A DNA stretch of 64,000 nucleotides. Origin: Candidatus Hydrogenedentota bacterium (GTDB lineage: Bacteria > Hydrogenedentota > Hydrogenedentia > Hydrogenedentales > SLHB01). The notes beneath the pieces were generated by a model that did not search any database, had not been told where the DNA came from, and saw nothing but the letters and a program-made list of their open reading frames with translations. Positions 14,450 through 43,295 of this stretch are shown here, one piece after another. The translations under genes and the position numbers were made by a program. The stretch spans positions 448,001 through 512,000 of the forward strand of contig CAVUWV010000008.1 of assembly GCA_963745075.1 (NCBI GenBank). The letters are read 5' to 3'. Position 1 is the first letter of the stretch. Each line of letters starts with the position of its first letter.

Positions 14450-14473
14450 GGCGGGTTGGAAAACCCGCCCTCC
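14450..14473 (+). repeat. REP family B (GGCGGGTTGGAAAACCCGCCCTCC)
   Basis: Hairpin; identical 24-bp copy at 20788-20811. Confidence 0.85.
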
Positions 14474-15062: not shown

Positions 15063-15425
15063 TCAGATGTTTCCTTTGGCCTGCTTCACCAGACGGTTGA
15101 TCCAGAGGTCGATGTAGTCGCCGCCGACTTCGGCGATAACATTGATGCCTTGGGTGCGGCCGAAGGTGACGGCGGCGTCGCGGGCGAGTTCACGGGCGCG
15201 GCGGCGTTCGGCGGAGGTGAGCTTGCCGTCTTCGCTGGCTTCTTTGATGGCGCGGACGTAGGTCTGGTAGGTCTGGTCGACGCCGGCTTCGAGGGCGGAT
15301 ATGGCCTGGGCGTAGCGACGCTCTTTGGCCCGCTGGTACCAGTCCCGGGATTTGAAGAAGGTCCAGGCGGCGCCGAAAACGGTGCCGAGAAGGGTGATGC
15401 TGGTATCGGAGACGAGAGATTCCAT
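15063..15425 (-). CDS. Holin-like protein (LL-H-type architecture)
   Basis: Single N-terminal TM, AISALEAGVDQTYQTYVRAIKEASEDGKLT helix, last gene of cluster; AAGGAG RBS. Confidence 0.55.
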   Translation of the reverse strand: MESLVSDTSITLLGTVFGAAWTFFKSRDWYQRAKERRYAQAISALEAGVDQTYQTYVRAIKEASEDGKLTSAERRRARELARDAAVTFGRTQGINVIAEVGGDYIDLWINRLVKQAKGNI

Positions 15426-15449
15426 GAGGGGACTCCTTTGGTTGGTTTC

Positions 15450-15538
15450 ACTGGGAGCGCCATGCACCAGCGCGGCGAGTGCCGGGGAACACCTGCGGTA
15501 AGGACCAAGACGCCACGCTGGTGCATGGCGCTCCCAGT
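15450..15538. repeat. REP family A inverted pair inside the phage-like cluster
   Basis: ACTGGGAGCGCCATGCACCAGCGCGGCG / CGCCACGCTGGTGCATGGCGCTCCCAGT. Confidence 0.85.
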
Positions 15539-15594
15539 CGATTTACACGGACCTGCACGGACGGACACGGACAACAAATGCCGGAGTGCAGGAA

Positions 15595-16116
15595 CTACAA
15601 GAAGGTTCGGGCGTCGATAATGTAGCCGTTGATGGCGTCGTCGGTGTTTTTGATGGCGGCCATGCCAGGGCGCACATAGAGGTGCGCGAGGGCGAGGGCA
15701 TTGCTCGACGGGCTCGGCGCGACGGGCGACGCGGCTTCGGCGCCGGGGACGATGCTGATATCCCAGGTTTCGAGACGGGCTTGCACGAGATCGATGCGGG
15801 GGTTCGTCGTGGGCGGCGTGACGTCGGGCGTGGCGGTCTCGGATTCGAGGCGGTACGGGAAGCGCCCGATAAAGGCGTAGCCAGGTTTCACGTTCACGGA
15901 CAGGCCGGGCACGTCCGCGGCGACAACTTTCAGATCGTCCGTCGCGGCTTTTCGAATGACGCCGTCGCCGCCGCCCCAGGCCTGGCTGAGCAGGAAGTGG
16001 ATGAGTTCGAGGGCGGCCTCGATGCGGTCGTCCCAGGAGTTGAGTTTGGACGAGGCGACGGGGCGTTCCGCAAAGGTCCAGGAGGTCTTGGTGTAGGCTT
16101 TGCCTTTGATCGCCAT
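15595..16116 (-). CDS. Baseplate/tail-fibre-anchor-like protein
   Basis: LKVVAADVPGLSVNVKPGYAFI...RIDLVQARL...LALAHLYV...IIDARTF pattern resembles N-terminal domains of phage tail/receptor-binding proteins; follows Tal-like gene. Confidence 0.6.
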   Translation of the reverse strand: MAIKGKAYTKTSWTFAERPVASSKLNSWDDRIEAALELIHFLLSQAWGGGDGVIRKAATDDLKVVAADVPGLSVNVKPGYAFIGRFPYRLESETATPDVTPPTTNPRIDLVQARLETWDISIVPGAEAASPVAPSPSSNALALAHLYVRPGMAAIKNTDDAINGYIIDARTFL

Positions 16117-16144
16117 TTCGAGAATCCTTTCGGGCTGGGGTTTT

Positions 16145-17899
16145 CTAGTCGAGGTGGTAGCCGGCGTCGAGACCGACGTCGTCCGCATCGAGGCGGAACT
16201 GGAAGAGCTCCGTTTCGCGGGGTTGGCTGCGGACGGTGAAACTGAGCGGATTGGCGACGGAACGCAGCGGGGACGTAAATCGGATACGGGTTTGGAGGTG
16301 CGCGCCGGAGAAACGGTGGACGATTTCCTTCACGCGGGCGACAAGCACGCCGGGAAACCGGTCGCCCCATTCACCGTCGACTTCGCGGTCGAGACGGCGG
16401 AGGACGCCACCGCGAAGTTCGACGAGATCGCCTACGGACACGTCCGCAAACCCGTCGTAGTATTCCACTTCGTCGGAGGGCTCGGGATAGGCGATGTCGT
16501 CGAGGAGGCCTTCGACGAGTTTGTCGGCGTCCTCTTCGAGGGAGATGCCGAAGTGATCGAGCGAGCGGGCGTAGAACCCGAAAGCGTCGATACTCGCGCC
16601 GGCCCAATAGGTCTTTTCCAGTGTGCCGGTGATGGGATTGCCATCGAAGTAAACGGCGTTGATGAGGTCGCTTGAATCGGACCCGAGTGTCACGCCCATG
16701 CGCGTGGGATCGAAGAACCAAACGCGGTCGGGGCGTGTAGCTCGGCGAAAGCTTACGCGTAGCTCCGGATCGATGGACCAGATGAAACCACCCGCGGCAT
16801 AGGCCAGCGCGGTAAGTGCTTCGAGGACGCCGCCGGACGCGTCGAAGTTCACGAGAGAGACGCTCGTGCTGTCGACGGAGTCTGCCTTTGGGCCGGGGTA
16901 TGAGAAGAAATCCTTCAGCTCCATCTCAGGCACAAGGCATTGGCCGTCTTCGTAGAGATAGACTTCGGCGAGTCCCTGTTCAACGAGGGCGGCGTTGAAA
17001 CATTCGCCGCCGCCGAAGACGAGGCCGAGGTAGCGACCGTAGACGTCAACGCGATCGTCGAATGCGCCGCTTGCGTCGCGATGGGGGTTTAGTTCGATGA
17101 AGTCGATACCCTTGGTGTCGATGAGCGACTGCAACGCGGCCGTCGCGGCGTCCGCCTTCAATTTGTAGCCGCTCGCGTTGTATCGGTCGGTGGTCCAGTC
17201 TGCGACTTCTGGGTGGCGCGCGATGGCGTGCGAGTTCTTGTCGGTCTCCTCGGCATCGATGAGCATGAGGCGGACGTCGGGCCAAGGCGCGCCATCCACT
17301 TCGATGCCCGCGATAGTGTCGCCGTCTTTGGCGTAGGCATTGGTGAGGTCGAGTCGATCGCTGCCGACCCATTGGCCCGCGTCGATACCACCGTTTGCGA
17401 GTTCGTTCGTGTCCGTCTTACGTGCGAGGAATTTCTGGTATTCGCGCGCGGCGCCGTCAGGGTAGGCCGTGTGGGCGACGGTGTAGTGAATTGCACCCGG
17501 CGCGCTTTGGACGGCGTCTTTGACGATGGCGTCGATGCTGCGGTTCGTGTAGACGCGGGAAATCGTGGTGTTGCCGTCAAGGGGATCGCGCGCGGCGGCG
17601 AACTCGATGATTTCGTGGAACGTGACGTATTTCTCGAGAATGAGTTTGCGCGTTTCGCTCCATTGCGGTGCGATCTCCGTGACGGGCGCTTCGCAGAAAA
17701 GTTGCCCGTCGATCAACACACGCACCCGATAGCCGTGGCCAAGATCGGTGATACCTTCGGGCAACAGGCCGCGTACCCGATCCGCATCGCCGGGCCAGGT
17801 ACGGATTGCTTCCAGTAACGGCACGTCCGCGTAGCGCCCGATGCGCCGGCCTTCCGTGTCATAGATTTCGATAGCGTAGTTCACGTCAATCACCACCAC
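16145..17899 (-). CDS. Tal/baseplate-hub-like tail protein with inserted staphylococcal nuclease (thermonuclease) domain
   Basis: Follows Dit-like gene; internal KDGDTI..VRLMLIDAEET..DVYGRYLG..FNAALVEQGLAEVY; start may be 17893 or 17884. Confidence 0.75.
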   Translation of the reverse strand: MVVIDVNYAIEIYDTEGRRIGRYADVPLLEAIRTWPGDADRVRGLLPEGITDLGHGYRVRVLIDGQLFCEAPVTEIAPQWSETRKLILEKYVTFHEIIEFAAARDPLDGNTTISRVYTNRSIDAIVKDAVQSAPGAIHYTVAHTAYPDGAAREYQKFLARKTDTNELANGGIDAGQWVGSDRLDLTNAYAKDGDTIAGIEVDGAPWPDVRLMLIDAEETDKNSHAIARHPEVADWTTDRYNASGYKLKADAATAALQSLIDTKGIDFIELNPHRDASGAFDDRVDVYGRYLGLVFGGGECFNAALVEQGLAEVYLYEDGQCLVPEMELKDFFSYPGPKADSVDSTSVSLVNFDASGGVLEALTALAYAAGGFIWSIDPELRVSFRRATRPDRVWFFDPTRMGVTLGSDSSDLINAVYFDGNPITGTLEKTYWAGASIDAFGFYARSLDHFGISLEEDADKLVEGLLDDIAYPEPSDEVEYYDGFADVSVGDLVELRGGVLRRLDREVDGEWGDRFPGVLVARVKEIVHRFSGAHLQTRIRFTSPLRSVANPLSFTVRSQPRETELFQFRLDADDVGLDAGYHLD

Positions 17900-18576
17900 C
17901 GGTCGTGGACCGACACGACCGCTTCAGCGTCGTGGGAGCTGGCAGGATCGTCGGTGTAGGTTAGCGTCGTCCCTTCCGGTGCGATCTCGGGGAAAAGACC
18001 GGTCGTGTAGGGCGTCACGTCGACGCCGTCGAGGGTGACGCGGGAATTCGGCCCGTCAAAGATCAGCACGGACGCGGAGGACACAACGCCATTGTAAAGG
18101 ATGCTCCAGATACCATCAGAAATGGACGGATTGATGAGATTGTCGTTTGCGGTGATTGTGATTGCCGGTACGGAGGTGTAGTTACCGCCGGCGGATACGA
18201 CAAGGGTCGCGCCGGAGGCGTTGATGGGCCAGTTCTCGCTCGTGGGATCGACGGACCGCTCGTAAGGATCGCGGGCGTGGAGTTTCAATGTGAAGTTGCC
18301 GACGCGGGCGTCGTTCGCGATCTCGCGTTTGAACTCCGTGCGGCGGACGTAGAGTTCGCGGTCCGTGCGAATGGAGAGCGCGGCGGTGTAATCCTCCGAG
18401 GACACCGCGTCGAGAATGGCGTCGAGTTTGGTTTCGATAGCGGCGGCGGTGGACTCGCCCACGATGAGTCCGGCGATCTCGATGACGCGCTCGCGGCGGC
18501 CGCCGACTTCCTGGTGCGTCTCACGGACCGTGGTGTGGGCGGGATCGAAGGTGTGGTTTCCCAGCGTAATGGCCAC
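17890..18576 (-). CDS. Distal-tail (Dit)-like protein
   Basis: FTLKLHARDPY, GNYTSVPAITIT, LINPSI, GLFPEIAPEG and C-terminal DRWW resemble siphophage Dit; GTG start with GGAGG RBS. Confidence 0.6.
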   Translation of the reverse strand: MAITLGNHTFDPAHTTVRETHQEVGGRRERVIEIAGLIVGESTAAAIETKLDAILDAVSSEDYTAALSIRTDRELYVRRTEFKREIANDARVGNFTLKLHARDPYERSVDPTSENWPINASGATLVVSAGGNYTSVPAITITANDNLINPSISDGIWSILYNGVVSSASVLIFDGPNSRVTLDGVDVTPYTTGLFPEIAPEGTTLTYTDDPASSHDAEAVVSVHDRWW

Positions 18577-18579
18577 GGG

Positions 18580-18996
18580 TTAGTCCTCCCCGAGGATGGG
18601 GGTCGAACCGGTCGCGTCGGCGGGGATGCGGGCAGGGGCATCGCGGAGGTACGGTTCGAGGACGTACCACGCCTGCTTTTCCGTGAGGGCCGCGACGCCG
18701 GTCAGTGCGCGGAAGCGGTTGCCATCCTCGACGCGTTGGCCGCCGATAGCGACGTTTTTCTGGGCGAAGGCGTCGTGGGCCGCAAGGGACCGGAAGAGGT
18801 ACGCACCCGCGAGCAGAGTTTCGCCGGAGACGAGACCGGGGTCGGGGGATTCGGTGTCGACGTCGGGATCGATCTGGCGGAGGATGTTGCGGTGCGCGTC
18901 GTCGATGGCGGCGACGACGAGGTCCTGGGGGACGGCGACGGTGTCGTTGAGCTGGAATTTGAGGCGGACATCGGCTTCGGTGGTGAAGTTGGGCAT
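18580..18996 (-). CDS. Head-tail connector/adaptor-like protein
   Basis: 138 aa helical protein directly after the capsid gene, FTTEADVR N-terminus; GGAGG RBS. Confidence 0.6.
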   Translation of the reverse strand: MPNFTTEADVRLKFQLNDTVAVPQDLVVAAIDDAHRNILRQIDPDVDTESPDPGLVSGETLLAGAYLFRSLAAHDAFAQKNVAIGGQRVEDGNRFRALTGVAALTEKQAWYVLEPYLRDAPARIPADATGSTPILGED

Positions 18997-19018
18997 GGGC
19001 GGAACCTCCGGGAAGAAG

Positions 19019-19057
19019 AACACGGACCTATACGGACAAGCACGGACGGACACGGAC
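19019..19057 (+). repeat. 10-bp-period (C/T)ACGGAC tandem array
   Basis: Units start at 19021, 19031, 19041, 19051. Confidence 0.85.
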
Positions 19058-19177
19058 AAAGCAACCGAGGCCACCGCACGAGCCGCGCGAACAGCAGCTT
19101 TTGGCGGGGCCTGGGGCCTCTTGTGGCGTAGAGGCCCCAGGCGTGGGCCGGATGGGCGGGTCCGGCGAGGAGATTCG

Positions 19178-20227
19178 TTAGGACCAGTCGCTTTGGACGA
19201 CGACGCGGGCGTCTTTGTAGATCACGGCGAAGTCGGTGACGACCGTGAGGTAGGTGCGGTCCCACTGCTGGTTGATGAGTTTGTCGTTCTCGACGAGCAG
19301 GTCCTGTTCGGTGAGTTTCTGGACCGTGTATCCGGCGTCGAGGATAGTCAGTTTATCCGTGGGCTGATCGACCATGGGAACGAGACGCACGCCGAGTGGA
19401 GTGGGCAGGTTGCCGGTCTTCGCGAAGTCGAAGAGGACGGCATCCTTGAGTTCGGTGAGTCCCAGGATGGTTTGCGCCAGCGCCGAGTTTGCCAGCATGT
19501 GGGTGGGCGTGAAGTACTTGTCCAGCGTCAGGGTCATGAACCCTTTGACGATGTCCGCGTAGGTCCACGTGTCGGCGGTGGCGGTGTTCACCGTGGGCGC
19601 CGCCGTGCCGCTGCCAGACGAATCGCCGCTGACAAGGACCGTGGCCAGGCGCGCATCGAGATTGCGACCGAGGCGTTCGCCGATGCGTTGCAAGTGGACG
19701 CGGAGCATGTCGACGGACATGCGGCGGATGACTTCGTAGGACGCGACCACGCCGCGGCCTTTCTTGTCGAGGCGGACGATGCGGTCGCCGTAGGTGATCT
19801 CCGATTCAGGGATCGCGGCGCCTTCGGCGACGGTGCGCAGTTCCTCTTCGGCGGACGCTTCGTCGACGTAGGGCACATCGTAGGCCGTGCTCGATACGGG
19901 TTCGTCGCGGATGATGAGTTCGGGGTAGACCGGCTTGCGCTTGAGACCGGAAACGACGGCCTCCCGCACGATGTCGGGAAAGAGCCATTTCGCGTTGGGG
20001 TCGCTCTGGAAGAAGCGGTCGACGGTAATGCGGTGTACGTCGACGCCGAATTCCTGGGCGCAGTAGTCGGTAAGGGTGGTGCCGAGGGCGCGAAAGTACT
20101 GCCCGTGGGTCAGGCCGAGGGCGCCGAGGGTGTCGTACAAGTCGTGGCCGCGCGTCTGGCGGAGCCGGTCGGGCTCCTGGCTCAGGAACGCGAGGCGTTC
20201 TTTGACGTTGTCGTCGCGGTAGGGCAT
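19178..20227 (-). CDS. Major capsid protein (HK97 fold)
   Basis: 349 aa; LFPDIVREAV, VAEGAAIPESEI, LDKKGRGVVASYEVIRRMSVD, LVENDKLINQQWD; position in head operon. Confidence 0.88.
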   Translation of the reverse strand: MPYRDDNVKERLAFLSQEPDRLRQTRGHDLYDTLGALGLTHGQYFRALGTTLTDYCAQEFGVDVHRITVDRFFQSDPNAKWLFPDIVREAVVSGLKRKPVYPELIIRDEPVSSTAYDVPYVDEASAEEELRTVAEGAAIPESEITYGDRIVRLDKKGRGVVASYEVIRRMSVDMLRVHLQRIGERLGRNLDARLATVLVSGDSSGSGTAAPTVNTATADTWTYADIVKGFMTLTLDKYFTPTHMLANSALAQTILGLTELKDAVLFDFAKTGNLPTPLGVRLVPMVDQPTDKLTILDAGYTVQKLTEQDLLVENDKLINQQWDRTYLTVVTDFAVIYKDARVVVQSDWS

Positions 20228-20336
20228 GTGGGATTCCTTTGTTATTGGCTCGCGCTTTGCGCTCGCATGGGATCGATTACGAGTACGATTACGAGCACGA
20301 GAAGAAGATGGAGGTTAATGATGAGGTTGAGTTGGT

Positions 20337-20717
20337 TTAGAGCAGAACGTGAACCTTGCTTGCTCCGCTGTCGACTTTGAGGTTGCGGCCGACGCCGTTG
20401 CCGGAGGCGGGGGCTTTGACGGTGCCGTCGGTGGCGGAGGCGAGAATGCCGGCCTCGCCGTCGACGGTGGGCGCGGAGCCCGTGTAGGTGAAGATGCAAA
20501 TGCCACGGACCTTGATGGGAATTGCGACGCCGTTGTCGTCGGCGTCCGCCAGGGCTTGGCCGAAGACCACGTCTTCGTCGTCGGTGGCATTGTTCACTTC
20601 ATAGGCGCCGGTGAGCTTGACGGCGTCGCCCGCGGCGATGTCGATGGTGCCGCTGGCGGGGGTTTTGCAGGTGATGACGAGTTCGGTGACCGAACCGCCT
20701 ACGTCTCCGTATGCCAT
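20337..20717 (-). CDS. Capsid decoration/cement protein (DUF2190-like)
   Basis: 126 aa beta-rich, IAAGDAVKLTG..FGQALAD..IKVRG; immediately upstream of the capsid gene. Confidence 0.65.
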   Translation of the reverse strand: MAYGDVGGSVTELVITCKTPASGTIDIAAGDAVKLTGAYEVNNATDDEDVVFGQALADADDNGVAIPIKVRGICIFTYTGSAPTVDGEAGILASATDGTVKAPASGNGVGRNLKVDSGASKVHVLL

Positions 20718-20787
20718 TTTGCGTCTCCTTGTTTGATCACTTCGGTGTGGGCTTCTCTATGCTTGCGCCTATCTGGGCGATGGGTTA

Positions 20788-20811
20788 GGCGGGTTGGAAA
20801 ACCCGCCCTCC
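20788..20811 (+). repeat. REP family B copy inside the phage-like cluster
   Basis: Identical to 14450-14473. Confidence 0.85.
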
Positions 20812-20960
20812 TTTGAGGGACGAAAGGGACCTAAAGGACGGGGAGAAAACCGACGCGCTGCTCGATGTCCCCTTGGTCCTTTTGGTCGTTTGGGTCCTTT
20901 GGATTGGGAGAGGCCCAGTCCTATGGTCCTCATCGATTAGCGCCGCGCGTTGCACTGCGG

Positions 20961-21656
20961 TTACGCCGGGTCGCGGAGGATCGTCATGGCGCGATTTTGG
21001 TCTCGCGTGGTCTGTGTCAGCGGCTCCGGTCTGGATGTGGGGCTCGGGGGATATTTGTTGTCGAACCGGATCTCGTAGGCGCGGAGGTGGACATGGATCT
21101 CGTCGAGGGAGAGTTGGGCGAGGGTCCGGCGCCAGAGCGTGTCGTCGAAGGACGGGCCGTCGAGTTCGCGGCCGAGCCCGCAGAAACGTTCGATGGCGCG
21201 GGTGCGGGCGGTTGCGCCGTCGGTGATGAGGCGAGCGGCGTCGTGTTCGCGCGCGCCGGCTTCGTCCAGGGCGTGGCGGATGTCCCGGACGGCGGCGGGG
21301 GGCAGGCCGTCGACGCGGCGTGCGCGGATGACGCGGGATTCGCCGTTGCTGTGGAGGACAAGGGCGCGCTCGTCTTCGGTGGATTCAAGCCAGTGGTAGG
21401 TGCCTGCTTCGAGGCAAATGGCGTCGCCGGGCTGGTTGAGCCAGCGGAGATCGTGGGGCGCTTTTTCGGTCGCCCAGGGCTTGCCGTCGAGAGCGGTGGC
21501 GTCGATGCGCCAGCCGGTGAGGCAATCGCCGAATTCGAGGCGCAGATCGAGGTGGGCGCCGATGGCGTCGCGGTGGCGGTGGATGACGTAGCGGCCGTCT
21601 GGGGTGGTTGGGCGCAACGTGGAATCGGGGGTTTCGGTGGTGAGGGTCCAGTACAT
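20961..21656 (-). CDS. LigD-type 3'-phosphoesterase domain fused to a helical scaffold-like C-terminus
   Basis: RYVIHRHRDAIGAHLDLRLE..LTGWRI..KAPHDLRW..EAGTY resembles PE-domain FVxQxH..HxDxRLE..W..H..GTY; AAAGGA RBS before ATG 21656. Confidence 0.65.
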   Translation of the reverse strand: MYWTLTTETPDSTLRPTTPDGRYVIHRHRDAIGAHLDLRLEFGDCLTGWRIDATALDGKPWATEKAPHDLRWLNQPGDAICLEAGTYHWLESTEDERALVLHSNGESRVIRARRVDGLPPAAVRDIRHALDEAGAREHDAARLITDGATARTRAIERFCGLGRELDGPSFDDTLWRRTLAQLSLDEIHVHLRAYEIRFDNKYPPSPTSRPEPLTQTTRDQNRAMTILRDPA

Positions 21657-21690
21657 TGAGGGGGTCCTTTTTTGGGTGGGCGGCGGCAGA

Positions 21691-21729
21691 AACACGGACT
21701 TACACGGACAGCCACGGACGGGCACGGAC
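21691..21729 (+). repeat. 10-bp-period CACGGAC tandem array
   Basis: Units at 21693, 21703, 21713, 21723. Confidence 0.85.
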
Positions 21730-21739
21730 CAATGCGGCT

Positions 21740-21952
21740 TTACGCGTGAAGCAGCTGCTGGCCGAGGGAAATGACCACCGCGACGAGGTTGGCGACAAGG
21801 AGGAGGACGCCTCGTGCGAGCGTGGTTTCGAGGTCTTGGACCCGCGCTTTCAGTTCCTTGATGTCTTCGGCGAGGTTGTTGACCTGAATCTCGTAGACGA
21901 TGCCGTATGGGCAGCGTTCCGTGTCGCAGGGGGCGGTTGCGTTGCTATTCAT
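21740..21952 (-). CDS. Small coiled-coil plus C-terminal TM protein (70 aa)
   Basis: LAEDIKELKARVQDLETTL coiled coil then GVLLLVANLVAVVISLG; start overlaps the protease stop. Confidence 0.6.
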   Translation of the reverse strand: MNSNATAPCDTERCPYGIVYEIQVNNLAEDIKELKARVQDLETTLARGVLLLVANLVAVVISLGQQLLHA

Positions 21953-22644
21953 GGGACCACCATTTGCGGGGGCAAAGTTCGATGGGTTCGTGGTAGGCGT
22001 CGCGGGCGACTTTGAGAGCTTGGTCGAGGGGGAGCGTGCGTTTGGCGCGTTCGGCTGCGACGAAGCCGGTGCCCTGCGAACCGGAGGAGACGACGGAGCC
22101 TTCAATAACTTCGAGGACGTTGCGCATGATGTAGTGGCATTGGTGATCTCCGTAGGTCTTGCCGGGGACGTGGTCGCAAGTGCGGAGGTCTTTTGCGCAG
22201 ATCGAGCATTCGGGTGTTTCGAAGGAAAAGCCGATGGAGGTCTCGCGATACACGCCGCCCTCGATGTTCAGGATGAAGTCGGCGTTGTCCTGGGTGCGGA
22301 GCACGTAGAACGTCGGGCCGCACGGCGACGCGCGCGCCGTCGTGATGGAGCTGGGATCGGAAGAAAGTGCCGCGCGGCAACGAACCGCGCAGATCGTGGC
22401 GCTCCATCAGCGGACGGCCTGGGGTCATGGCGCTGATCGTTTCGAGTTCGTCGTCGGGGAAGCGGCTGTGGTGCCGGTCGATCTGGTTGTGGCAGAGGTC
22501 GAGGGTGAAGACCGCGAACTCGTGCGGTTCGAGGGGGCGCAGGGCGAAGCGGTTGACCTCAGCGGCGCTGCTGTCGTCATCGGCGCGGGCGCGGACGGCG
22601 ATGAGGGCGCCTTCGCGGCGGAATACAAAGGGATCGAGATCCAT
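21945..22644 (-). CDS. Prohead maturation protease-like protein with Cys/His motif, split by one extra base at ~22309
   Basis: LCHNQIDRHHSRF..MERHD..VRPDV / YVLRTQDNADFILNIEGGVYRETSIGF..CSIC..CDH..CHY..EGSVVSSGSQ; removing one base (GACGTTCTAC to GACGTCTAC on the minus strand) joins both ORFs. Confidence 0.7.
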
Positions 22645-22681
22645 GGCGGTGCTCCGTGTTGTTGTCGGGTAGTCACTGACC

Positions 22682-22769
22682 GGAAAAACAGGGACAGACA
22701 CCAATTGCCGTTGGAAGTTTGGGTGAGGCAAACGTTCTTGGGGCAATTTGAGTCAGTCCCCATTTTTCC
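22682..22769. repeat. REP-like inverted pair (GGAAAAATGGGGAC type)
   Basis: Arms 22682-22709 and 22742-22769; related arm at 63948-63972. Confidence 0.7.
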
Positions 22770-22899
22770 AAGGGGCATACATGGGGACACCTGTCGGCCC
22801 GGTGGACATATACTTATTGATTATTCAGGGGCTAACGAGTGCCCCCATGTATGACCCTTGCGATTGCGGATTGCGGACTTCGAATTGCAGATCGGAAGA

Positions 22900-23057
22900 A
22901 CATCCCCCTTGATCCCCCTTCAAAGGGGGAGTTCGGCCAGCGTCGTCTATTAGTATGTGCGCGGTGACATGCTCCGAACCGAATTCTTTTGGCGAACCTA
23001 ACGCAACGCGAAGCGTTGTGGGAGATTCCCCCTTTGAAGGGGAATTAAGGGGGATGT
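22900..23057. repeat. REP-like inverted pair (ACATCCCCCTTGATCCCCCTTCAAAGGGGGA type)
   Basis: 33-bp arms 22900-22932 and 23025-23057, each with an internal hairpin. Confidence 0.8.
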
Positions 23058-23064
23058 GCATTTC

Positions 23065-24324
23065 CTATCCGATGCCGAGGGTTTTGGCGGCTTCTTCGTG
23101 GGTGAGGAAACCGTTTTCGCGGAGTTGGACGGCGTTGGCGATCTCGCGCTGGCGGGCGGTGGCTTCTTTGAGCACGTCGACGGTGCGGTTGGCGCGCACA
23201 TGGACGCGGGCCTCGGCGTAACCCCACATGAGCGCGAGTTCGAAGTTGTAGAGCCGTTCGAGGATGCGTTTGACGCTGCGGTTGACGGCCTCAACGTGGC
23301 GGTTGATGATTTCGAACTGGGCGGTGCCGTAGGTTTCGGTGGTGCCGTAGTTGCGGCCGAGGAGGATCGGCATGAGGTGCATGCCGGTGATCACCTGTTC
23401 CTCGATGGCCTTGTGGTTGTCGTAAAAGATCTGCGCGTGTTGGTCGCCGCGAATGAGATTGACGCGCACGTTGTCGAAGGTGACGAAATTCTGATCCGCT
23501 TCGAGTCCGGACAAGCGATCCCGCAGCAGATCGAAGTTGCCCTGGATGCGTTCTTCATAGGCCTCGGCGGATTCGCCGCGGGCGCGTTCGTCGGCGGTGT
23601 ATTGGACGTGGAGTTTGGACCAGCCGGCGTTGTGGGTGGCTTTGGCCATATCTTCGAGGAGGCGCTGCTGGATCTTCACGACGAAGGGGATAGACCGCAG
23701 CATGGAGCGGCCGTAGGGATTGGTGCCGTCGCGATCGAGACCGACGTAGATGAACCGTTCGGGCGGCAAGGGGATGGCCTCGCCGTCGAGGATCTGGTAG
23801 GGCCGGAGAAGCCCGTCCTCACGGCGGAAGCGAACGGTCCAGACGTCGACGGGGAGGACGTCGAAGATGGATTCGCGGCTCTGAGAAAGCACGATCTCGA
23901 CCGCGGCGGCACCGTAGGTGAAGAGCGAGGTGTAAAACACATCGAGGAGACCGTCCATGCCGCGGTCGCCGGAATTCACGCGCCTGTCGAGTTCGTGGAG
24001 GAGGCGTTGCGCGCGGCGTTTGGCGGCGTCGGACGACGGGTTGAGGATCTCGATGTCGTAGCCGGTCTGGCAGAGGCGTTTCCAGGTCCAGACGGCGTCG
24101 GAGATGTCGGGGATGGCGTCGCGCAGGAAGCGGTAGACCTGGAGCATGCCGAAGGGCGTATCGTTGGGGAGGGCGACGAACTCGCGGGGAATGCCCTGAA
24201 AGGCGCGCTGGTCTTCGGCGAGGGACGCGGGGAACAGGGCGCCGCCGCGCTCGCGGGTGGTGAAGGTTTCGGCGCGGGGCGCGGGCTTTGGGGGGCGGCG
24301 GAGGCGTTGGAACCAGTGGAGCAT
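23065..24324 (-). CDS. Phage portal protein
   Basis: About 420 aa; YRFLRDAIPDISDAV, YGAAAVEIV, NPYGRSMLRSIPF, ILLGRNYGTTET, GFLTHEEAAKTLG; first gene of head operon. Confidence 0.8.
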   Translation of the reverse strand: MLHWFQRLRRPPKPAPRAETFTTRERGGALFPASLAEDQRAFQGIPREFVALPNDTPFGMLQVYRFLRDAIPDISDAVWTWKRLCQTGYDIEILNPSSDAAKRRAQRLLHELDRRVNSGDRGMDGLLDVFYTSLFTYGAAAVEIVLSQSRESIFDVLPVDVWTVRFRREDGLLRPYQILDGEAIPLPPERFIYVGLDRDGTNPYGRSMLRSIPFVVKIQQRLLEDMAKATHNAGWSKLHVQYTADERARGESAEAYEERIQGNFDLLRDRLSGLEADQNFVTFDNVRVNLIRGDQHAQIFYDNHKAIEEQVITGMHLMPILLGRNYGTTETYGTAQFEIINRHVEAVNRSVKRILERLYNFELALMWGYAEARVHVRANRTVDVLKEATARQREIANAVQLRENGFLTHEEAAKTLGIG

Positions 24325-24580
24325 ATCGGGGTGATCCTCAGGTGTTGGTTTCATTGGTTAGGCACGGGGCGTTGCATGGAGAAGGCTGGAGACCGGAGTC
24401 CGGAGGCTGGAAGGGACAGAGGCGCAGCCAGGACATAGGTAACAGACTCGGACTGACACGGACGACCGAGACGGCCGCATGCTGGTGCTAGTGCTTGGGT
24501 AGGTGATGGGGTCGAAAAGATTTGGGAAATGGCTCATAATTAGAGGATTCCTTTGGGATATGACCGTGGAGGGCTGGATA

Positions 24581-43213: not shown

Positions 43214-43295
43214 AAGACCCCCCTCTAACTCCCCCGTGAACGGGGGGAGAACGGGCTCCCTCCCCGTTCACGGGGAGGGCCTGGGAGGGGGTCTT
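43214..43295. repeat. REP-like GC-rich inverted repeat (CCCCCTCTAACTCCCCCGTGAACGGGGGGAG type)
   Basis: Two CCCCGT(G/T)(A/C)ACGGGG hairpins within outer AAGACCCCC...GGGGGTCTT arms. Confidence 0.75.

Follow-up and report, generated by a model that had tools for sequence, protein, structure and literature searches.

The window analysed here is a stretch of 64,000 nucleotides (nt) from the genome of a Candidatus Hydrogenedentota bacterium (assembly GCA_963745075.1, contig CAVUWV010000008.1, positions 448,001 to 512,000). It contains eleven minus-strand genes that form a phage-like head and tail-tip operon, and the spacers between these genes carry several families of repeats that are also found elsewhere in the same genome. 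An original prediction, made from the letters of the window, had listed these repeats and had taken them as evidence that the gene cluster is long resident and under purifying selection rather than a recent prophage. All of the listed repeats were found where it had placed them. The genes and features are collected in Table 1. In the text, G000 denotes the genome under study, C a contig and L a locus or record; the operon lies at C8:463-472 kb.

Table 1. Genes, repeats and other features of the operon, in the direction of transcription. Positions are those of the window.
Feature	Position	Strand	Evidence and remarks
Promoter-like motif (TGCAAC, spacer, A/T-rich block)	24350..24379	-	5' of portal gene; also upstream of the detached terminase operon
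Portal protein	23065..24324	-	PF06074, E 7e-10; phrog_3753, E 4e-47; ratio of nonsynonymous to synonymous substitution rates (dN/dS) 0.09 against a congener
C-rich doublet element, two inverted arms	22900..23057		210 pattern matches
7-nt GCGGATT array	22858..22890		Remnant arm of four-helix-bundle (PF05635) element; common to the window and L051
GGGACAG inverted-arm element	22682..22769		Absent from the L051 spacer
Prohead protease, phrog_16951 family, Cys/His-rich insert	21945..22644	-	Split over two frames at 22310; both halves match phrog_16951
70-residue protein, coiled coil and C-terminal hydrophobic segment	21740..21952	-	Conserved in place; weak matches to PHROGs of unknown function
CACGGAC 10-nt array	21692..21729		Common to the window and L051
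LigD phosphoesterase-like domain fused to probable scaffold domain	20961..21656	-	Profile matches to 3p43, E 1e-8, and 3p4h, E 7e-7
Second copy of promoter-like motif	20928..20957	-	5' of decoration and capsid genes; kept in L051-L053; above threshold in 11/79 loci
9-nt AAAGGAC/GTCCTTT inverted arrays	20814..20902		Like 9-nt GGAC arrays flanking four-helix-bundle-like genes
Family B palindrome	20788..20811		Identical to 14450-14473
Capsid decoration or minor head protein	20337..20717	-	phrog_4588, E 1e-8
6-nt GATTAC/GAGTAC array	20273..20301		Family flanks four-helix-bundle gene G000:C32:109022
Major capsid protein	19178..20227	-	PF25209; phrog_3922, E 4e-52; dN/dS 0.06; one clade, support 97
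G+C-rich hairpin 3' of capsid gene	19109..19142	-	Kept in L051 and L052; other hairpins there in more distant loci
CACGGAC 10-nt array	19021..19059		Present in L051 and L052; absent in L054 and L055
Probable head-tail adaptor	18580..18996	-	Position after capsid gene; Atlas cluster at 0.96, Phage_connect_1 on 30% of members
Distal tail protein (Dit)	17890..18576	-	phrog_33, E 3e-12; profile match to 2x8k, E 5e-6
Tail-tip hub, gp27/VgrG/Tal fold with inserted staphylococcal-nuclease-fold domain	16145..17899	-	AlphaFold2 predicted local distance difference test (pLDDT) 91; PF00565
172-residue virion structural protein (r172)	15595..16113	-	phrog_9534, E 1e-7; Atlas leads <0.9
CACGGAC 10-nt array	15545..15572		Pattern match
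Family A inverted-arm element, REP-like	15448..15538		Family flanks Y1/RAYT genes
Holin-like membrane protein	15063..15425	-	Ortholog matches phrog_13712 holin weakly, E 0.003; 47/55 long loci

Several of the assignments in Table 1 were supplemented by comparison with relatives. The protease gave no match in a PDB profile search, and its homolog in L187, a record described below, matches Peptidase_S78_2 and a head maturation protease PHROG. Because 5 of 74 loci have the C-terminal half of the LigD-like protein joined straight to the protease, we infer a scaffold role for this half, which showed no similarity to the L187 protease tail by hhalign. The adaptor had no Pfam, PHROG or PDB match. The hub model was built with an alignment (the single-sequence fold reached a pLDDT of only 36) and revealed Foldseek matches both to baseplate hubs (gp27/VgrG/Tal) and to staphylococcal nuclease; the hub also has the conserved motifs DGDT, R, D-E and R. 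The 172-residue protein is probably a baseplate or fibre anchor, and a lysis or membrane accessory role is suggested for the 70-residue protein. Rather than a repeat, the hairpin behind the capsid gene is probably a terminator or attenuator of ancestral origin. There was no sheath and no long spike in the operon, and no tail tube or tape measure gene between the adaptor and Dit genes; the tape measure profile PF10145 was above cut-off in 12 of 54 genomes, this one not among them.

Some members of the operon are optional. An endolysin-like gene is present in 26 of 55 long loci, and its place is occupied in the window by the family A element. A fibre-like protein with a hydrophobic N-terminus was found in 15 of 67 loci; in G000 a detached fibre-like gene (C31:345285-346051, L265) has a conserved N-terminus, a variable remainder and the promoter-like motif upstream. 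In some relatives, extra decoration-like genes lie 3' of the portal gene (L078 and L119, portal-protease spacer), and an IS4-type transposase and a BrnT module lie in operon spacers (L078 and L104).

The operon was found to be widespread and conserved. The capsid gene occurs in 97 of 109 Hydrogenedentota genomes (78 of the 86 of high quality), essentially in single copy, and the order of the genes was kept in all of the first 20 loci, up to the ends of their contigs, and likewise in 81 distinct loci, whose flanking genes vary. No integrase or replication gene recurred beside the operon. The dN/dS values of the window genes against congeners ranged from 0.025 to 0.31, and those of ten pairs from 0.02 to 0.43, mostly near 0.1; values for dapB were excluded, since those loci do not have the gene. 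Identity to a congener was 95% for the capsid and 92% for the portal protein, compared with 73% for the neighbouring host TPR protein. Upon comparison with a SecY+Adk tree of 31 genomes, 14 of 28 splits were common to the capsid tree, 10 to the TerL tree and 16 to the combined tree (shuffled mean 0.24, maximum 3), and neither the capsid nor the combined tree conflicted with the host tree at a support of 0.95. In the tree, a long stem leads to a single clade of these capsids, and the nearest full-length capsids outside it are at most about 35% identical; the sole portal match in the viral collection (L133) is a copy of the same operon. Judged by gene order, substitution rates and trees, the operon was passed down within the phylum Hydrogenedentota, its history follows that of the host, and its genes are under purifying selection. 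The conclusion of the original prediction, long residence under purifying selection and not a recent prophage, was thus upheld by single-copy synteny, low dN/dS and host-tree congruence, which show the long residence that the repeats do not.

Synonymous divergence (dS) from congeners differed within this gene set: it was 0.41-0.49 for the capsid (19178-20227), decoration (20337-20717), portal (23065-24324) and holin (15063-15425) genes, and 0.75-1.5 for the adaptor, hub, Dit and TerL genes and a host gene. The difference possibly reflects synonymous constraint on highly translated subunits. A codon-adaptation score that ranked the operon very high was rejected, as it was confounded by regional C-richness.

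The terminase lies elsewhere in the genome. An intact large subunit (TerL) of 488 residues is encoded at G000:C8:332009-333472, 131 kb from the operon, behind a small partner gene and beside dapB, and the terS-terL pair occupies C8:332-334 kb; in G022, G047 and G057 the two loci are within about 7 kb of each other. Matches to TerL were found in 102 of 109 genomes (83 of the 86 of high quality), the best match being more than 50% identical in all but one and a few being partial. The protein is 32-37% identical to Pfam-positive terminases, has weak terminase PHROG matches and a match to PDB 4zni (E 7e-4), and its Walker and nuclease motifs were invariant in 23 sequences. A reading of the system as terminase-less was discarded: five Pfam terminase models and a Bacillus phage TerL had missed the gene, and these results were false negatives. 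Since standard terminase models missed it, similar systems are easily misread as terminase-less.

The two loci are connected by an upstream motif containing TGCAAC, which is enriched 5' of the portal gene. A matrix trained only on portal regions of relatives (44 of 60 sites) was above threshold 5' of terS in 26 of 28 relatives, compared with 3% of shuffles. Among 5477 genes of G000, terS ranked first, a D5-type primase gene second, the portal gene fourth and a second terS-like gene fifth; a peptidoglycan-binding lytic transglycosylase gene (rank 16), a second primase copy (18) and the detached fibre-like gene (27) followed. In total, 116 genes passed the threshold, and since many high-ranking ones are unrelated host genes, the lower ranks are leads only. 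We infer that the motif is a promoter; sharing it would tie the two main loci into one probable regulon, in which the operon and terS-terL would be co-regulated.

Other carriers of the motif were also observed. Two D5-type primase/helicase genes, 99% identical to each other (G000:C20:222920-224320, L301; C24:14590-16020, L302), both carry the motif and are neighbours of RAYT genes and family A repeats. The D5 primase was rejected as a core gene since it is patchy (15 of 95 genomes) despite the shared motif, and the element is possibly a small parasite of the particle system. A second terminase lineage, whose 10 sequences group in a single clade (support 100), occurs in part of family f1 (G000:C24:454643-456024, L155; C1:371972-373487, L156; L233-L240), and a divergently oriented small-terminase-like gene about 4 kb from the C24 member carries the motif. 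In both G000 copies and in G005 and G111, but not in G003, this second terminase carries a GGGACAG insertion at one and the same codon position, in frame in G005 and G111. The original prediction had repeats confined to the spaces between phage-derived genes, and three genomes with this element inside the gene of a spare terminase paralog run counter to it. The transglycosylase of rank 16 (G000:C24:459968-460792, L155:13969-14793) has peptidoglycan-binding and SLT domains and is a candidate replacement endolysin.

We then compared the repeat content of the operon with that of the rest of the genome, for which 5480 genes were called by script and a spacer was scored as repeat-positive when it held 14-mers recurring at least 6 times in non-coding DNA. 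Repeated 14-mers were present in all six internal spacers of at least 80 nt and in all three flanking ones, and absent from the operon spacers of 28 nt and 3 nt. Genome-wide, 490 of 2038 co-oriented spacers of at least 80 nt (24%) were positive. The genome has no longer run than these nine positive spacers, and 3 of 500 length-matched permutations reached nine; among the 105 co-oriented gene runs with at least five large spacers, the operon is the only one that bears repeats throughout. The concentration of repeats in the operon is therefore more than chance. A PHROG scan of 73 of the 162 genes from 18 other repeat-rich regions revealed no virion module, and across loci the repeat load did not rise with operon length.

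Nearly all matches to the repeat patterns were intergenic: 78 of 80 for the family A arms, 24 of 25 for family B, 30 of 33 for the 6-nt arrays, 206 of 210 for the C-rich doublet and 50 of 54 for the CACGGAC arrays, with none in a shuffled genome, and 15 of 20 for the 7-nt arrays and 10 of 13 for the GGGACAG arms, with one each in the shuffled genome. The strict 9-nt pattern matched only the copy in the cluster, from which we consider this family degenerate; a looser pattern was found in 6 spacers. The pairings drawn in the original prediction were largely reproduced. The family B copies are identical at 24 of 24 nt, although the copies at 14450 and 14705, which had been placed outside the cluster, lie in spacers directly flanking the operon. 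The doublets at 22900-23057 and 43214-43295 have the same architecture but belong to different sequence families, and the 22900-type pattern has no match at 43214.

Several of these families derive from small mobile genes of known kinds (RAYT/Y1, four-helix bundle, DUF559), of which they are the arms. The genome contains 16 Y1/RAYT, 4 four-helix-bundle, 1 GxxExxY and 1 DUF559 gene matches, and in the genome or an ortholog the same repeat flanks its cognate gene for family A, GGGACAG, the C-rich doublet and the 6-, 7- and 9-nt arrays. In particular, the GGGACAG arms are upstream of five Y1/RAYT genes, and the C-rich doublet family is on both sides of the DUF559 gene at G000:C24:246416. In L079, the orthologous portal-protease spacer holds a complete PF05635 four-helix-bundle gene between GCGGATT arms, of which the window retains one. 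For family B and for the CACGGAC arrays, the search for a cognate gene was negative. The families, named from Pfam matches, resemble REP/RAYT, PF05635 and PF04480 elements: they have palindromic or short tandem arms that are intergenic and, in this genome, flank PF01797, PF05635 and PF04480 genes. Unlike whole elements of this type, the operon has arms only, concentrated in one place. A literature search found no papers on these co-occurring repeat families.

The orthologous spacers were compared as the original prediction had suggested, and they proved shorter in relatives: the medians of the six spacers were 64, 20, 95, 19, 83 and 59 nt, as against 420, 83, 243, 109, 181 and 169 nt in the window. 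The family and position of the repeats also differed among sister species. The C-rich doublet is in the hub-r172 spacer of two sister species (capsid 95% identical), where the window spacer has 28 nt; in L051, the one of the two with a portal-protease spacer to compare, that spacer lacks the C-rich doublet and GGGACAG element of the window. The CACGGAC array 3' of the capsid gene is common to both sister species and absent from two more distant congeners. Because the same families sit in other spacers in the sister species, the repeats are recent and cannot date the residence of the operon, contrary to their use as a sign of long residence. As these comparisons indicate, most inserts are younger than the genus, and the repeats show only that the operon predates the current species.

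Additionally, the operon was compared with flanking host genes, a satellite-like element, compositionally odd islands and prophage regions. At least one repeat-bearing spacer was found in 33 of 80 orthologous loci. In relatives, a genome-independent detector scored 73 of 270 operon spacers as positive and 16 of 176 flanking host-gene spacers. In this genome, a satellite-like element at tRNA-Pro had 0 of 7 positive spacers, and this element together with six compositionally odd islands had a named family in 1 of 83 spacers and any repeated 14-mer in 15 of 83. Ordinary prophage regions of relatives were positive in 2 of 98 spacers, compared with 76 of 273 homology-defined operon spacers; the prophage set comprised 16 regions around terminase and tape measure genes in 8 relatives, with unmapped borders, and 3 of the 8 genomes have no operon repeats either and are uninformative. 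The low repeat density expected of genuine prophages was thus observed. The operon accumulates repeats faster than ordinary host operons and, since its load exceeds the host-operon level, plain amelioration does not account for it.

Few gene transfer agents (GTAs) are known, and those of the RcGTA type have tail tube and tape measure genes in the head-tail operon. Formally recognised GTAs are from Alphaproteobacteria and Brachyspira (PMC9662315), to which FpGTA of Faecalibacterium has been added (PMC12946183). In PMC9662315, GTAs are defined as caudoviricete-derived virion-like particles that carry mostly random host DNA, are endogenised, cannot package their whole genome, are inherited vertically and deliver DNA. 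Three of these six features are found in the Hydrogenedentota system, as judged from its genes. Sequence or fold similarity, by which the first can be judged (PMC9662315), is present for the portal, capsid, Dit, hub and TerL proteins; the system is endogenised across loci with variable host flanks (the operon, terS-terL and the fibre-like gene at C31:345 kb); and it co-diversified vertically, with the 14, 10 and 16 of 28 splits shared with SecY+Adk. RcGTA, BaGTA and BhGTA likewise have caudoviricete-derived head, portal, terminase and tail-tip genes, several loci and vertical inheritance, and RcGTA has a tail of 49 nm (PMC9662315). In contrast, no tail tube or tape measure was found here, which sets the operon apart from the RcGTA type (Rhodogtaviriformidae), and the hub has a nuclease insert, the scaffold a phosphoesterase-like domain, and the hosts make up a whole uncultured phylum.

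FpGTA is similar: its operons lie about 125 kb from each other, it has both a holin and an endolysin, it is present in nearly all of its hosts, and its particles are without visible tails (PMC12946183). It differs in its capsid, of the N4-gp56 family and not PF25209/phrog_3922, and in its terminase, which is in the head operon (operon I) and not detached (PMC12946183), so the operon does not belong to this type either. Because the capsid families differ, as compared by family listing, a separate domestication is probable. A head cluster of Oscillospirales type (L187, MT835508) has homologous portal (E 7e-19), protease (2e-8) and capsid (4e-34) proteins and is embedded among host genes without tail genes; unlike the Hydrogenedentota operon, it includes terS and terL, lacks Dit and hub, and its capsids, about 32% identical, form a separate clade. 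The best reading of these comparisons is that the system would be neither RcGTA-type nor FpGTA-type but GTA-like, scattered and tube-less, with an operon that acts as a repeat sink. A literature search, with subscription papers and preprint supplements outside its reach, found no published description of it; 10.1101/2022.02.18.481119 concerns alphaproteobacterial GTAs instead.

We hold with moderate confidence an overall explanation in which the repeats are passengers of a domesticated, tube-less, GTA-like particle system. Its parts differ in strength. The system is almost certainly domesticated and functional, and the repeats are very probably passengers; packing of host DNA is predicted with good confidence, and for its delivery as by a GTA the balance tips only slightly in favour. 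Small host mobile elements would insert between stop codons and ribosome-binding sites and then lose their gene, so that their non-autonomous arms are left. Repeats most probably build up because the operon is silent in almost all cells, so that insertions in its spacers cost little while the coding sequences are under selection; weak selection on the spacers of a mostly silent operon would be the best explanation of the load. In rare cells, the operon would be switched on together with the detached terS-terL through the shared promoter motif. The induced cell would build a small capsid with the protease and scaffold, pack pieces of host DNA through the portal, and close the head with the adaptor and a Dit-hub tip without a tail tube; holin and endolysin would lyse the cell, and the particle would carry the DNA to kin, as gene transfer agents do. 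More speculatively, the hub nuclease could remove DNA outside the target cell, and the scaffold could carry the phosphoesterase-like domain into the head.

A number of findings weigh against this explanation. The tail tube and a conserved tape measure were not found, although the failures of the terminase models show that such searches can miss genes, and this genome, which is 90% complete, lacks a homolog of the endolysin-like gene. One strongly supported TerL split conflicts with the host tree. The hub, present in 65 of 95 genomes, was found in 0 of 9 genomes of family f13 and 2 of 14 of family f11, which keep capsid and TerL and thus have head-only versions; injection of DNA via the tip is therefore not universal. 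The repeat enrichment is uneven, with the operon higher than its flanks in 16 loci, lower in 7 and tied in 18, and these loci are kin and not independent. Finally, 64 of 65 loci have the protease as one reading frame, and only in this assembly does a single additional base (at 22310, relative to a congener) split it, which qualifies the earlier claim that the reading frames stayed open. Such breaks occur elsewhere in the assembly, where 18 of 172 genes orthologous to those of a congener are split. At this rate of about one break per 3900 codons, 2700 codons should contain about 0.7 breaks; an assembly error is thus the probable cause.

The split protease, together with a locus that lacks a terminase, tube or endolysin and a 4-mer composition at the 98th percentile of atypicality, is what a recent or decaying prophage remnant would offer, with the frameshift and missing genes as decay. 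The chance of this is negligible in our estimate: phylum-wide single-copy synteny, low dN/dS and tree congruence refute it at the phylum level, the same assembly also breaks rpoB, rpoC, fusA and tuf, and the odd composition follows a regional skew. Nor were an integrase, a replication module, a full tail, a patchy distribution or close free phages found, and an active or recent prophage was rejected. The skew itself could make the hot spot a regional accident, unrelated to the operon, of a chromosome stretch with extreme GC skew. Its sign switches near 3-5 kb of the window and it peaks at the portal gene (window 1-30000; G000:C8:340000-500000), where four-fold G-C skew is 0.7; skew deviation is weakly correlated with nearby repeats (rho 0.10), and the three flanking spacers bear repeats as well. 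We consider this very improbable, as the enrichment recurs in relatives with other operon neighbours and either skew direction (-0.67 to +0.80 in orthologous operons), and spacer expansion is not correlated with skew across loci (rho -0.05).

The repeats could also be regulatory parts under selection, which as mRNA stabilisers or attenuators would set the stoichiometry of the subunits, as suggested by their location between stop codon and ribosome-binding site and their independent recurrence in the operon across the phylum. This is improbable, given that family and position differ between sister species, that 47 of 80 orthologous loci have no repeats, and that the arms have no strand preference genome-wide. 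More serious, though clearly less likely than the explanation favoured above, is a domesticated particle without gene transfer, which packs or degrades DNA and acts as a decoy, a PBSX-like killer, a means of extracellular DNA release or a nuclease carrier. The lack of a detected tube or conserved tape measure, the nuclease domain in the hub and the head-only versions in two families agree with it, and PBSX packs DNA without injecting it (PMC12946183). However, the terminase and portal are intact and strongly conserved, a PBSX-like killer would be without the sheath or long spike, and FpGTA and BaGTA particles are themselves reported as tail-less or short-tailed (PMC12946183, PMC9662315).

A bolder form of the favoured explanation, which we regard as tentative, is a phylum-wide GTA of new build, in which a small head and a nuclease-armed, tube-less tip would be encoded at scattered loci under one dedicated promoter, with the operon as a repeat sink. 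Selfish cassettes, namely the second terminase pair and the D5-type primase element, would have picked up the same promoter to exploit the GTA. If the system is what it appears to be, its head-only and head-plus-tip versions would represent an independent and very old phage domestication, and it would test whether DNA delivery needs a tail tube. The shared motif is a means of finding the regulator and more of the scattered genes. The repeats are of ordinary kinds; that they are concentrated here is a modest, testable clue to how rarely the operon is used, and a repeat sink could serve as a marker for other silent domesticated operons.

Some minor observations were made along the way. L187:15914-22017 (MT835508), deposited as a phage, is bacterial chromosome, with the order terS-terL-portal-protease-capsid-adaptor, no tail genes and a ribosomal protein operon nearby. 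The capsid belongs to a very large family (7853 of 7999 scored candidates), whose named members have Oscillospirales-type names, and the cluster may explain the GTA-like packaging in gut genera in which no FpGTA operon was found (PMC12946183). At G000:C8:415000-438000, frameshifts occur in rpoB, rpoC, fusA, tuf and several genes for ribosomal proteins; with so many assembly indel errors, other findings of broken genes in this genome are affected. A stretch of about 95 kb at G000:C36:300000-397812 has 37-45% G+C, as against 59% in the genome, and is either a foreign island or contamination.

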